Shown in pieces: positions 4,385-8,523 of a stretch of 14,317 bases of DNA; position 1 is the stretch's first letter; each line of letters starts with the position of its first letter. A program made the translations under genes and the position numbers. The notes under the pieces were generated by a model, which was given only the letters and a program-made list of their open reading frames with translations, did not search any database and was not told where the DNA came from. The stretch is from the UHGV virus genome UHGV-0064133. The stretch is one strand, 5' to 3'. Origin of the DNA: a virus.

Positions 4385-4413
4385 TGCTTTCCCTTTCGTG
4401 GTTAGGGCCGCCG

Positions 4414-5612: not shown

Positions 5613-6374
5613 ATGACACAGTTTCAACTTGCATTAATCGCCAGAGAAGTTGATGGAGAAGTCATCCATCTTCGCACCAAAGACGGTTACATCAATGCCA
5701 CCGCAATGTGCAAGTCTGCTGGGAAGCTACTTGCTGACTATACACGACTAAAAACAACGCAAGATTTTTTTGATGAATTATCCCGCGATATGGGGATTCC
5801 CATATCGGAATTAATTCAATCATTTAAAGGCGGAAGAGCAGAGAATCAAGGGACTTGGGTTCATCCAGACATCGCAATTAACTTAGCTCAGTGGCTATCT
5901 CCAAAATTTGCAGTGCAAGTATCGAGATGGGTGCGTGAGTGGATGTCAGGCGAAAGAGCGCCTGCCGAACTCCCTATCCACCTTAAGCGGTATATGACAA
6001 ACCGAGGCAGGGTTCCTCATACGCACTTTTCTATGCTTAATGAACTGACGTTTAACCTGGTTGCGCCACTTGAGCAGGCAGGATATACGCTGCCAGAAAA
6101 AATGGTCCCTGATATTTCAGAAGGTAGGGTTTTCTCGCAATGGCTTCGTGAAAACCGGGGTGTTGAGCCGAAGACGTTCCCAACATATAACCATGAGTAC
6201 CCAGATGGCCGGACATTCCCGGTACGTCTATACCCAAACGAATATCTTGCAGATTTCAAACAACACTTCAACGAAGTGTGGCTGCCTCAGTACGCTCCTA
6301 AATATTTTGCAGAACGAGACCAAAGGGCATTGACGTTGATTGAGAAAATCATGTTGCCTGACCTTGATTCCTAA
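5613..6374 (+). CDS. KilA-N domain protein with uncharacterised C-terminal domain (immunity-region cargo)
   Basis: N-terminal ~110 aa carry the KilA-N/APSES-like signature (YINATAMCKSAGK ... GTWVHPDIAINLAQWLSPKFAVQVSRWV); C-terminal ~140 aa (FPTYNHEYPDGRTFPVRLYPNEYLADFKQHF...) matches nothing I recognise. RBS AGGA; followed by a terminator hairpin. Confidence 0.7.
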   Translation: MTQFQLALIAREVDGEVIHLRTKDGYINATAMCKSAGKLLADYTRLKTTQDFFDELSRDMGIPISELIQSFKGGRAENQGTWVHPDIAINLAQWLSPKFAVQVSRWVREWMSGERAPAELPIHLKRYMTNRGRVPHTHFSMLNELTFNLVAPLEQAGYTLPEKMVPDISEGRVFSQWLRENRGVEPKTFPTYNHEYPDGRTFPVRLYPNEYLADFKQHFNEVWLPQYAPKYFAERDQRALTLIEKIMLPDLDS

Positions 6375-6382
6375 ATGTTATA

Positions 6383-6405
6383 CCCGGCCACCAAGCCGGG
6401 GTTTT
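6383..6405 (+). terminator. putative intrinsic terminator between convergent genes
   Basis: Stem cccggc (6383-6388) / gccggg (6395-6400), loop caccaa, followed by gtttta; lies 9 nt after the KilA-N stop and abuts the 3' end of the convergent small ORF. Confidence 0.5.
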
Positions 6406-6601
6406 ACTGCCCTTTCCGCACTATCTCAGCTGCATCCCTGTTCACACCCTTACCTATCACGTTTCCCGTTTCCTTCCGGTACCGTTCCAGCTTGTCGATG
6501 ATGTTTTGCTGGGTCATAGGTAAATCTGCCAGTGACAACTCCATGACCGCCCGCCCCATGGCGTGAACCATCATGTTCACTCTTTCTTCATCCAAGCCCA
6601 T
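6404..6601 (-). CDS. hypothetical small protein (65 aa) convergent with the KilA-N gene
   Basis: Strong RBS AAGGAG 6 nt upstream of ATG 6601-6599 on the minus strand; hydrophilic sequence MGLDEERVNMMVHAMGRAVMELSLADLPMTQQNIIDKLERYRKETG...; sits just inside the OL-like operator cluster. No family recognised. Confidence 0.5.
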   Translation of the reverse strand: MGLDEERVNMMVHAMGRAVMELSLADLPMTQQNIIDKLERYRKETGNVIGKGVNRDAAEIVRKGQ

Positions 6602-6650
6602 TACCCACTCCTTTTTGATGTTTTTTTCAGCATATCACTTATGCCACCAA

Positions 6651-6742
6651 AAAATAAATCAACATAAAAATCAACAAGAAACGATTAAATCAACAAAATA
6701 AATCCACAAGGTGTTGACCTATAAATCCACATGATGTTTAAT
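6651..6742. promoter_or_regulatory. OL-like operator cluster with rightward PL-like promoter
   Basis: Five direct copies of AAATC[A/C]ACA (6656, 6668, 6687, 6700, 6723); -35 TTGACC (6714-6719), 17-bp spacer, -10 TTTAAT (6737-6742) on the plus strand, with the last operator copy inside the spacer. Confidence 0.55.
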
Positions 6743-6785
6743 TATCCCATCGAAACGAAACATCGACAGCTGAGCGAAGTTAGCC

Positions 6786-6819
6786 AGCAGCGGACAGCAA
6801 GTCGCCTGCTTTTTAACAA
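6786..6819 (+). promoter_or_regulatory. promoter-proximal hairpin plus boxA-like motif (nut-like site or attenuator)
   Basis: Imperfect hairpin agcagcggac/gtcgcctgct (6786-6810, 8 of 10 bp) followed by TTTTTAA; overlapping TGCTTTTTAACAA (6807-6819) differs at one position from the rrn boxA consensus TGCTCTTTAACAA as I recall it. Confidence 0.4.
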
Positions 6820-7158
6820 CATGCAGATTTACAGCGTCAATGACCTGTTAAGACCCCTACACGTAAACGTGCTGTATCACCGGGTGCGATCCGGTCGGTG
6901 AGAGAGTATCCCCGCGCGAGAGCGAGAACGGCGTGAGAACGGGCAACACTGGCAGGGAGTTGGCGCTGACCAATACAGGGAATGTTATGGGATGTGGTGA
7001 AGGGTTCATGGACGGGAATATGTCGCACGTAAAGCGGCGAGGCCCGAGGAGCTATTGCCGAAGATAAGTAGGCCGAATCGGGTCGAAATGGGTCTCCCAC
7101 CTACCACATCGCCAAAGCATTTCTCCCGCATCAGCGGGTAACGACAGAGGGTAAGGGG

Positions 7159-7455
7159 ATGATCGACGACATCAAGCGCATCGACTCAATGATAAATGCG
7201 CTTCGCAATATGAAACAGGACATCAAGCGTCAGCAGAAACTAAGTGAAATAAACAGTTTAGACCTGTCGCCGAAGCAAGCTCAAAAGCGCAATGCCGATG
7301 CTGACTGGATTGCGATGGAACAGATTAAGCGTCGGCATGAGCTGCACGCTCTGTCTGTTGAGCTTGGGTTCGCTGAGCGCCGGGAAAGTTATGCTCCATT
7401 TGAATTAACTGACGGGTGGCACCGATTCGACCACAAGCCGCGCGAACCTCAATAG
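7159..7455 (+). CDS. hypothetical protein (98 aa), first ORF of the early-left operon
   Basis: RBS AAGGGG directly upstream of the ATG; charged, coiled-coil-like sequence; followed by a weak hairpin and T-run. Sits where lambda has N, but has no N-terminal arginine-rich motif. Confidence 0.55.
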   Translation: MIDDIKRIDSMINALRNMKQDIKRQQKLSEINSLDLSPKQAQKRNADADWIAMEQIKRRHELHALSVELGFAERRESYAPFELTDGWHRFDHKPREPQ

Positions 7456-7477
7456 CCGCCTAACCAGCGGCTTTTTC
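7454..7477 (+). terminator. possible weak intrinsic terminator / RNA hairpin
   Basis: Stem agccgc (7454-7459) / gcggct (7467-7472), loop ctaacca, then ttttc; overlaps the stop codon of the 98-aa ORF. Confidence 0.3.
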
Positions 7478-7611
7478 ATACCTGGAGTCATTTACGAGTG
7501 GCTCAAGTTATGACAACCGGCGGCCATCCACCGCCCATTGAAACACTGAATAAATGCGTTGAAGTCTTGTATTAACCGTTCCGTTCGCCGCGATAAGGCC
7601 AAGAGGAAATC

Positions 7612-8095: not shown

Positions 8096-8383
8096 ATGGA
8101 AATCGTAAAAATCGAAATGAACCTGAAAGCAGTGAATAAAGAAGTGGCTGCATTCAACTGCGAGAAGAAAGTATCAGGCGTTATTCACTCAACTACAAAC
8201 GGTGAAACAACAGTCATTCTCGACGGTGGCTATGTGCTTGGCAAGTTTGATTGCCCGCACTGCGCCATTGAGGAGATCAGCTTGCTGGCACTCAAAATCA
8301 GCGATAGCGATTACGCCGGCTGGGGAACCTACCGTACATACAAGCAAGATTTTATGAATGAGGCGATCGTAGCCGTCAGTTAA
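8096..8383 (+). CDS. hypothetical protein (95 aa), immediately upstream of recE-like gene
   Basis: RBS GGAG upstream of the ATG; contains a CPHC motif; occupies the racC position of Rac-like prophages. No family assignment. Confidence 0.5.
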   Translation: MEIVKIEMNLKAVNKEVAAFNCEKKVSGVIHSTTNGETTVILDGGYVLGKFDCPHCAIEEISLLALKISDSDYAGWGTYRTYKQDFMNEAIVAVS

Positions 8384-8523
8384 GCGAAAGCCCACCGAAG
8401 TGGGCCCGCCATGTCCGGCCTCACCGACCAAAGTTACACCGGAAACAACATTAAAACCAAAGTTAACCCAATGGGCGCTATCAATGGTCCGGGGATTCTA
8501 ACACCCAAAAAAGAGGATCTCAC

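Follow-up and report, generated by a model that had tools for sequence, protein, structure and literature searches.

The boxA that follows the early left promoter in the sequence studied here is the 5' edge of a structured and conserved RNA of about 160 nt (6807–6968). This RNA is composed of seven helices, with a boxB-like hairpin among them. The sequence, referred to below as the window, is the whole 14,317-nt stretch of the virus genome UHGV-0064133, and all coordinates are given on it unless another record is named. The nut site of phi80 is a large RNA with a conserved fold and not a lambda-style pair of boxA and boxB. The RNA is widespread in enterobacterial prophages, is absent from Rfam, and travels independently of any N gene. 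What is worth following is this RNA family and its independence from N. The observation of a promoter and a nut-like site, as first written, is a rediscovery of annotated phi80 features and adds nothing new.

The identity of the region can be stated first. A megablast search with window 6350–7500 showed that positions 6403–7500 are 99% identical to coliphage phi80; the same search also matched the phi80 remnants carried by DH5alpha- and DH10B-type laboratory strains. The features of the phi80 genome record JX871397 were mapped onto the window with an offset of +4903. Because of this identity and the annotated pL, nutL, N, and tL1A, the region is, by sequence comparison, the known pL/nutL of a phi80-immunity prophage, and the finding of the first-pass annotation was real but already known. 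In the older phi80 record M11919, a "nutL regulatory signal" at 661–938 corresponds to window 6770–7047 (gap-free offset 6109). This interval includes boxA and the entire fold, and the N protein and tL1 are marked in the record as well. X13065 likewise carries annotations of this N gene and of the O-L region. Both nutL features of JX871397, the boxA and the core, are labelled "putative".

The promoter lies where it had been placed. On the plus strand, pL consists of a −35 hexamer TTGACC (6714–6719), a 17-bp spacer, and a −10 hexamer TTTAAT (6737–6742), coincides with the annotated phi80 pL, and would start transcription at approximately 6749–6750. The hexamers agree with the consensus at 10 of 12 positions, and the −10 mismatch is the normally conserved A at position 2, the absence of which explains why a consensus promoter scan did not call pL. 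The location of the promoter within an operator cluster was likewise borne out by the phi80 record, in which three CI sites are annotated around pL. The oL cluster (6657–6742) comprises sites at 6657–6676, 6701–6719, and 6724–6742, the second and third of which overlap the −35 and −10 hexamers, respectively. The operator half-site AAATCMACA is present in seven copies in the window, only at oL and oR (chance expectation 0.28), and the CI repressor of the window is 97% identical to phi80 CI. HK639, CobraSix, and ENT1 have other promoters at this place, and their homology with the window starts at 6747.

Several further features were recorded around the operon. A KilA-N domain protein is encoded at 5613–6374, between cI and oL, the phi80 identity beginning only at 6403. 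A 65-aa open reading frame with a good ribosome-binding site is found on the minus strand at 6404–6601, divergent from pL, and ends at a bidirectional terminator (6383–6400). Its product falls into PHROG 3975, a group of unknown function; the open reading frame is listed for HK225 as HK225_042 but not in the phi80 record. An Rfam match to isrB, an Hfq-binding sRNA, lies on the minus strand at 8385–8482 (38.2 bits, gathering score 35), antisense to the pL operon and between the open reading frame 8096–8383 and a 969-aa open reading frame.

The boxA-like motif TGCTTTTTAACAA is present at 6807–6819 on the plus strand, about 58 nt past the presumed start and with a single mismatch to the rrn boxA (12 of 13 positions), as had been claimed. 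It fits CGCUCUUUA / UGCUCUUUAACAA on the early transcript (12/13), and it is the presumed site of NusB-NusE(S10). In JX871397, TGCTTTTTA at 6807–6815 is annotated as "nutL boxA; putative". The window contains only one match to the rrn boxA with one mismatch or fewer, where 0.03 would be expected by chance; 5 of 200 shuffles reach one. Among 87 aligned homologues, boxA is the best-conserved block at the 5' edge of the family, with a mean column conservation of 0.94. In Stx Eru1 phages, it is a perfect rrn boxA, TGCTCTTTAACAA (13/13).

Three explanations of this motif and the adjacent hairpin had been offered, and the nut-like antitermination site is the one that is supported, as the phi80 record annotates both a nutL boxA and a nutL core. 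The other two, in which the hairpin and UGCUUUUU serve as an intrinsic terminator or attenuator close to the promoter, or mark where an RNA of about 65 nt ends, are very improbable. It is correct that a weak hairpin stands next to boxA and that five U residues follow 4 nt on. The stem even gains one pair in phi80 and most homologues, where position 6789 is G; the A at this position in the window accounts for the shorter form. However, neither the proposed register nor the status as a terminator survived closer analysis. The stem as first drawn (GCAGCGGAC/GTCGCCTGC) has two central mismatches and borrows the UGC of boxA. The minimum-energy fold, GCG(G)AC-AGCAA-GUCGC at 6790–6805, ends 1 nt short of boxA and has just five pairs with a bulge, separated by 3–4 nt from the U-run. 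An 82-nt fold is no better than shuffles (z = −0.73), and a terminator scan called nothing at the hairpin and U-run. Moreover, the U-run (6810–6814) is the conserved boxA itself and shrinks to UCUUU in 24 of the 87 homologues. A hairpin ending 0–2 nt 5' of boxA is found in at least 10 unrelated upstream contexts, but several lineages, representing about six contexts, are without it. Finally, the 150 nt directly 3' of the U-run are under strong structural selection on the same strand, so transcription must pass through.

The sequence behind boxA is where the new observation lies. More than 120 distinct variants of the RNA were obtained in two exact-pattern scans of IMG/VR; they occur in enterobacterial phages. 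The analysis of 36 representatives with RNAalifold gave a set of nested helices, in which the "nutL core" is predicted as a local hairpin, and the covariance model R1, built from this result, has exactly one match in each of 87 loci. In the 87-sequence alignment, 96.9% of pair cells are standard pairs, compared with 32–45% when the partners are slid by 1–3 columns. Compensatory changes occur in 15 of 30 pairs, and none of 500 shuffles reaches the observed values. The structured core defined by RNAalifold, R1, the alignment, and the pair counts occupies 6832–6968 on the plus strand.

The outer helix P1 (6832–6841/6959–6968) was misaligned by MAFFT, and its duplexes were mapped separately, column to coordinate. 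It covaries between subtypes (GCGUC/GGCGC, GCAC/GUGC, GAAC/GUUC, GUAC/GUAC, and GCACA/UGUGC). Inside it lie P2 (6844–6849/6951–6956) and P3 (6855–6857/6941–6943). P4 (6860–6863/6868–6871) is the boxB-like hairpin, with an A-rich loop of 4–6 nt. It coincides with the phi80 "nutL core; putative" CACGTAAACGTG at 6860–6871 on the plus strand, where it reads CACG-UAAA-CGUG. Two of its four pairs covary (GC 54/AU 32 and AU 36/GC 30), and its stem occurs as CACG/CGUG, CACA/UGUG, and CGCA/UGCG. The short P6 (6872–6873/6905–6906) encloses P5 (6877–6883/6895–6901), a hairpin UCACCGG/UCGGUGA with a nearly invariant 11-nt loop, GYGCGAUCCGG. Compensatory changes in P5 are found in PA2 (C-G to U-A) and in the locus L210 (A-U to G-C and U-A to C-G). 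P7 (6912–6917/6922–6931) is variable in sequence; in the window, it reads CCG-CGC-GAGA-GCG-AGAA-CGG, with a GNRA loop (GAGA), and all three outer pairs show compensatory changes. The strand CGUGAGAAC (6932–6940) joins P7 to the 3' side of P3.

Other ways of reading the same nucleotides were considered. A coding explanation for 6807–6968 (open reading frames 6731–6901 on the plus strand and 6837–7100 on the minus strand) was rejected because the variation in stems is compensatory, the lengths of loops and hairpins shift by non-multiples of three, and the fold of the minus strand is poorer than that of shuffles (z +0.85); the RNA strand is the sense strand. A single-sequence fold pairs CACG over a long range with GCGUG at 6932–6935. 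RNAalifold favours the local P4 hairpin, which is preferred because only the local form accounts for CACA/UGUG; the long-range pairing may be a second conformer. In Rfam 15, the leader has no match at the gathering score, and only noise was obtained at E up to 10 over 6650–7500. A literal search of papers for the RNA sequence gave 0 matches.

The RNA is present in one copy per phage, on the sense strand and after pL in every locus. No nutR-like second copy was detected by R1 with filters off in the window or in the phi80 immunity-to-replication region (next match E 4), and the interval from the cro-like gene to cII is free of boxA-like motifs. This interval contains a hairpin GCCGCC-UAAC-GGCGGC without a U-run (4395–4412, minus strand), which resembles the tL1A stem (AGCCGCC-UAACCA-GCGGCU). 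Among species-representative genomes, the element is present in Enterobacter, Kosakonia, Kluyvera, Citrobacter, and Escherichia, and a divergent copy is found in the Edwardsiella phage Edno5.

The leader as a whole is a mosaic. The 410 nt between pL and N contain no credible open reading frame and split into blocks with separate distributions. The 5' leader segment (6749–6806, plus strand) has two small hairpins (6769–6788 and 6790–6805) and is 93–98% shared with HK639, CobraSix, and ENT1; the stretch 6747–6792 is the segment common to these phages, which have different promoters. The 5' limit of block A coincides exactly with that of boxA (6807); the block extends to about 6994 and is 94–95% identical in approximately 150 Stx-phage records of the PA2/TL-2011c type (Oslovirus, "Eru1"). 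Block B (6988–7117, plus strand) separates nutL from the ribosome-binding site of N and forms a long imperfect hairpin. HK97 and 933W-type phages, which carry unrelated N genes, have a version of it with 91% identity right in front of N; the one in HK97 comes immediately after the hairpin GCGCTGACAAAGCGC, which we take to be a P22-type boxB. Block B was also traced to L008 1201–1330 and L014 ~840–1000, and a similar closing stem was noted in the Hafnia phage yong1. It may be an element for leader processing or translation control.

The slot occupied by the RNA accommodates other cassettes. The 5' segment and 3' flanks that surround the boxA-headed RNA elsewhere enclose, in HK639, an annotated "putL-like antiterminator RNA". 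ENT1 (L016 850–1130) has a third cassette between the same flanks, with the same pre-boxA hairpin and a boxA-like TGCTCATTAAGAA, after which about 190 nt are unrelated to either the boxA-headed RNA or the HK639 put-like RNA. The HK225 copy (L006/L241, 31309–31499) is a recombinant, with a phi80-type 5' half and a 3' half of the other subtype. For this reason, its P1 is largely broken (duplex −6.9 versus −15.4 kcal/mol).

On the first gene of the operon, the first-pass annotation was half right. It had reported no N-like arginine-rich protein, and the absence of an arginine-rich motif is confirmed; nevertheless, the annotated gene N of phi80 (7159–7455, plus strand; JX871397, M11919, X13065) was missed. 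It encodes 98 amino acids and corresponds to Pfam PF26859, "Phage_N_antitermin". The translation contains no arginine-rich motif and is not a lambda-N homologue. It has no N_peptide or N36 match, and nothing at all in the Pfam copy searched, no relative in the PDB, and a PHROG of unknown function. Its AF2 model (m4c8289b0d163; pLDDT 90.5) contains two long helices and a beta-hairpin, so the protein is predicted to be folded and helical, with a long antiparallel coiled coil and a small beta-hairpin. A Foldseek search with this model gave no significant match; the best hits (E 0.2–2.4) were generic coiled coils, including Gfh1 and DksA2. These two proteins bind the secondary channel of polymerase, and the weak matches of the model to them are a lead only. 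As phi80 N has no arginine-rich motif, is not homologous to lambda N, and is predicted to be folded, the mechanism is not of the textbook type, in which boxB is read by an arginine-rich motif.

The family of phi80 N, PF26859, has 138 homologues and is present in 22 phage records, virulent ones included and no Stx phage among them. The RNA, as judged by R1, is absent from the PF26859 loci in those other phages. A canonical N (Pfam N_peptide or N36) precedes the PF26859 gene in Serratia and Citrobacter prophages and on a single metagenomic contig, and the same order is seen more weakly in Proteus and in Erwinia phage 59. This arrangement makes the Pfam name questionable. PF26859 was usually found 1–3 genes downstream of the canonical arginine-rich N (L237 2729–3300; L239 1957–3297; L240 90–993; L011 942–1791). 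The comparison of loci indicates that the gpN family and the RNA are not co-inherited.

The reading that we favour, with somewhat better than even confidence, is a CI-controlled pL of a phi80-type prophage followed by an N-assisted nut site, the phage-specific part of which would be the folded RNA. Once the three operators are free of CI, RNA polymerase would start at about 6749. The nascent RNA would form a small hairpin first, after which boxA (6807–6819) would be exposed and would bind host NusB-NusE(S10), by analogy with lambda nut and rrn leaders. The next ~137 nt would then fold into the multi-helix RNA (6832–6968), presenting the boxB-like hairpin (6860–6871) and the P5 hairpin (6877–6901), parts that may be contacted by gpN or polymerase. 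The RNA, the Nus factors, and phi80 gpN (7159–7455), which may be needed, would together convert polymerase to a termination-resistant form. Such a polymerase could pass tL1A (7454–7477, plus strand) and later terminators into kil and the recombination genes. tL1A is an intrinsic terminator, AGCCGCCTAACCAGCGGCT plus a T-run, found by the scan as well as in the phi80 annotation, and it is the first that such a polymerase would have to pass. For the steps that involve Nus factors and gpN, the proposal draws on knowledge of lambda and rrn and on database annotation.

Several lines of evidence support this proposal of an N-assisted nutL. The phi80 annotation supplies pL, oL, the nutL boxA, the core, N, and tL1A at 99% identity, and the "nutL regulatory signal" of M11919 spans boxA and the fold. 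The boxA is significant and conserved, the fold is backed by covariation, and the RNA is a single sense-strand copy after pL, in the same slot as the annotated put-like antiterminator RNA of HK639. Within 2.5 kb downstream of the RNA, 59 strict intrinsic terminators were counted in the sense direction and 13 in the antisense direction (66 loci). Nevertheless, a gpN that is predicted to be folded and is unlike lambda N fits poorly with such a scheme, as do the separate inheritance of gpN and RNA, the occurrence of gpN homologues elsewhere without the RNA and usually behind a canonical N, the lack of a nutR copy, the 40 nt between boxA and the boxB-like hairpin, and the label "putative" on both nutL features.

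The carriers of the RNA bear directly on the role of N. In 144 RNA-bearing loci with downstream sequence, phi80 N was present in 10 (mostly phi80 itself) and canonical N in 4 (the Edno5 group); about 130 have neither a phi80-type nor a lambda-type N. The first genes after the RNA belong to many unrelated clusters. No common N-like gene was found downstream of it in these loci, the small arginine-rich open reading frames looking like out-of-frame artefacts. In the window, the part downstream of the element was compared by phmmer with five N queries of the lambda, HK97, or P22 type and one uncertain query (Erwinia, Pfam E 0.033), and no lambda-type N was detected. HK225 is a complete phage that has phi80 immunity, pL, and the RNA in one copy; across its whole genome, none of seven N queries gave a match (E up to 1, six frames). 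The Eru1 Stx phages, which carry the RNA at 94–95% identity, have been reported to be without N homologues (PMC8044961). In PA2, where the first gene is of the Rha family, the untranslated leader between the RNA and this gene contains a strong intrinsic terminator, AGACGCGCCAGCGTCT plus T7 (L005 2923–2938); therefore, no operon-encoded protein is possible before this terminator is met. In other loci, unrelated first genes are again followed by a tL1A-like terminator.

These observations point to a second explanation, which is possible but clearly less probable than the N-assisted site. The boxA-headed RNA would be a self-sufficient antiterminator that modifies RNA polymerase in cis, as the put RNA of HK022 does, but with help from host Nus factors via boxA; it would require no phage protein, and phi80 "N" would be accessory. 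The separate inheritance of RNA and N, the rarity of a recognizable N among carriers, the PA2 terminator, the recurrence of tL1A-like terminators, the slot and flanks shared with the HK639 put-like RNA, and the fact that PF26859 genes normally accompany a true N are all consistent with it. On the other hand, in the phi80 records, the 98-aa gene bears the name N and is mapped along with nutL and tL1, which is taken to imply an experimental dependence on N. Small N analogues could also hide among the variable first genes (HK225_041, with a basic N-terminus, is a candidate), canonical N lies downstream of the RNA in Edno5-type carriers, and HK225 is viable despite a P1 broken by recombination. 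In its broadest form, the proposal, which we regard as tentative, is that the 160-nt RNA (6807–6968) represents a new class of processive antiterminator RNA, a Nus-recruiting and N-free cassette, with phi80 "N" (PF26859) as an accessory and possibly polymerase-binding protein and not the reader of boxB. If true, such an RNA would explain how the early left operon is expressed in lambdoid phages without N, such as HK225 and the Eru1 Stx2a phages (TL-2011c/O104:H4 type). Stx2a phages of high-virulence EHEC lineages, which reportedly are N-less, contain the RNA with a perfect ribosomal boxA, and if this RNA drives early read-through there, it would be a control point for prophage induction and for the expression of toxin-phage genes.

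A third possibility is that boxA and the fold only protect the 410-nt leader from Rho, or control N translation or RNA processing. The leader is indeed long and untranslated, and in phages that differ in their N genes, block B directly precedes N. It is also known that Rho is suppressed on untranslated rRNA by complexes of boxA and Nus factors, which can act as translational repressors at suhB as well. We consider this explanation improbable, however, as the RNA is kept before many unrelated first genes, the terminators downstream are intrinsic and not only of the Rho type, and boxA lies 340 nt from the N start codon.

The closest known system is phi80 itself, in which the promoter hexamers, operators, boxA, "core" hairpin, N gene, and tL1A are the same as in the window. 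The differences are the G at 6789, where the window has A, and the region left of 6403, where the window has the KilA-N gene and phi80 has gene 40A. In addition, the phi80 records mark just a 9-nt boxA and a 12-nt core; the 137-nt fold is unannotated in them. The lambda nutL and nutR sites resemble the window in that the site follows an early promoter and combines boxA with a short hairpin with an A-rich loop, with terminators downstream and a first gene that is named N. In lambda, boxB lies about 8 nt from boxA. In contrast, P4 in the window is a covarying 4-bp hairpin 40 nt from boxA, located inside a larger fold as an arm of a multi-helix junction; moreover, phi80 N is without an arginine-rich motif and predicted to be folded, there is no nutR copy, and the RNA and N are not co-inherited. 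The rrn antitermination leader (boxB hairpin, boxA, boxC) is similar in its boxA, matched at 12 of 13 positions here and at 13 of 13 in Stx Eru1. In rrn leaders, the hairpin precedes boxA, and the same order is seen in the window family, in which the hairpin ends 0–2 nt 5' of boxA. Unlike in the rrn leader, boxA in the window stands in a phage operon, with a large conserved fold and intrinsic terminators behind it. The put RNAs of HK022 and HK639 are comparable to the boxA-headed RNA in being located right after pL, with the same flanks in HK639, and in carriers without N. A put-type RNA acts on RNA polymerase without protein factors, an action that involves the beta' zinc-binding domain. The put RNA is about 70 nt long, has two stem-loops, and needs no trans-acting protein; boxA is unmentioned in that source (PMC9378689). 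The boxA-headed RNA, at about 160 nt and starting with boxA, differs from it in size and architecture, and a kinship between the two was rejected, as R1 finds nothing in the HK639 locus (best E 1.2). If the N-free reading is true, the boxA-headed RNA would be the second example, after put, of antitermination driven by an RNA.
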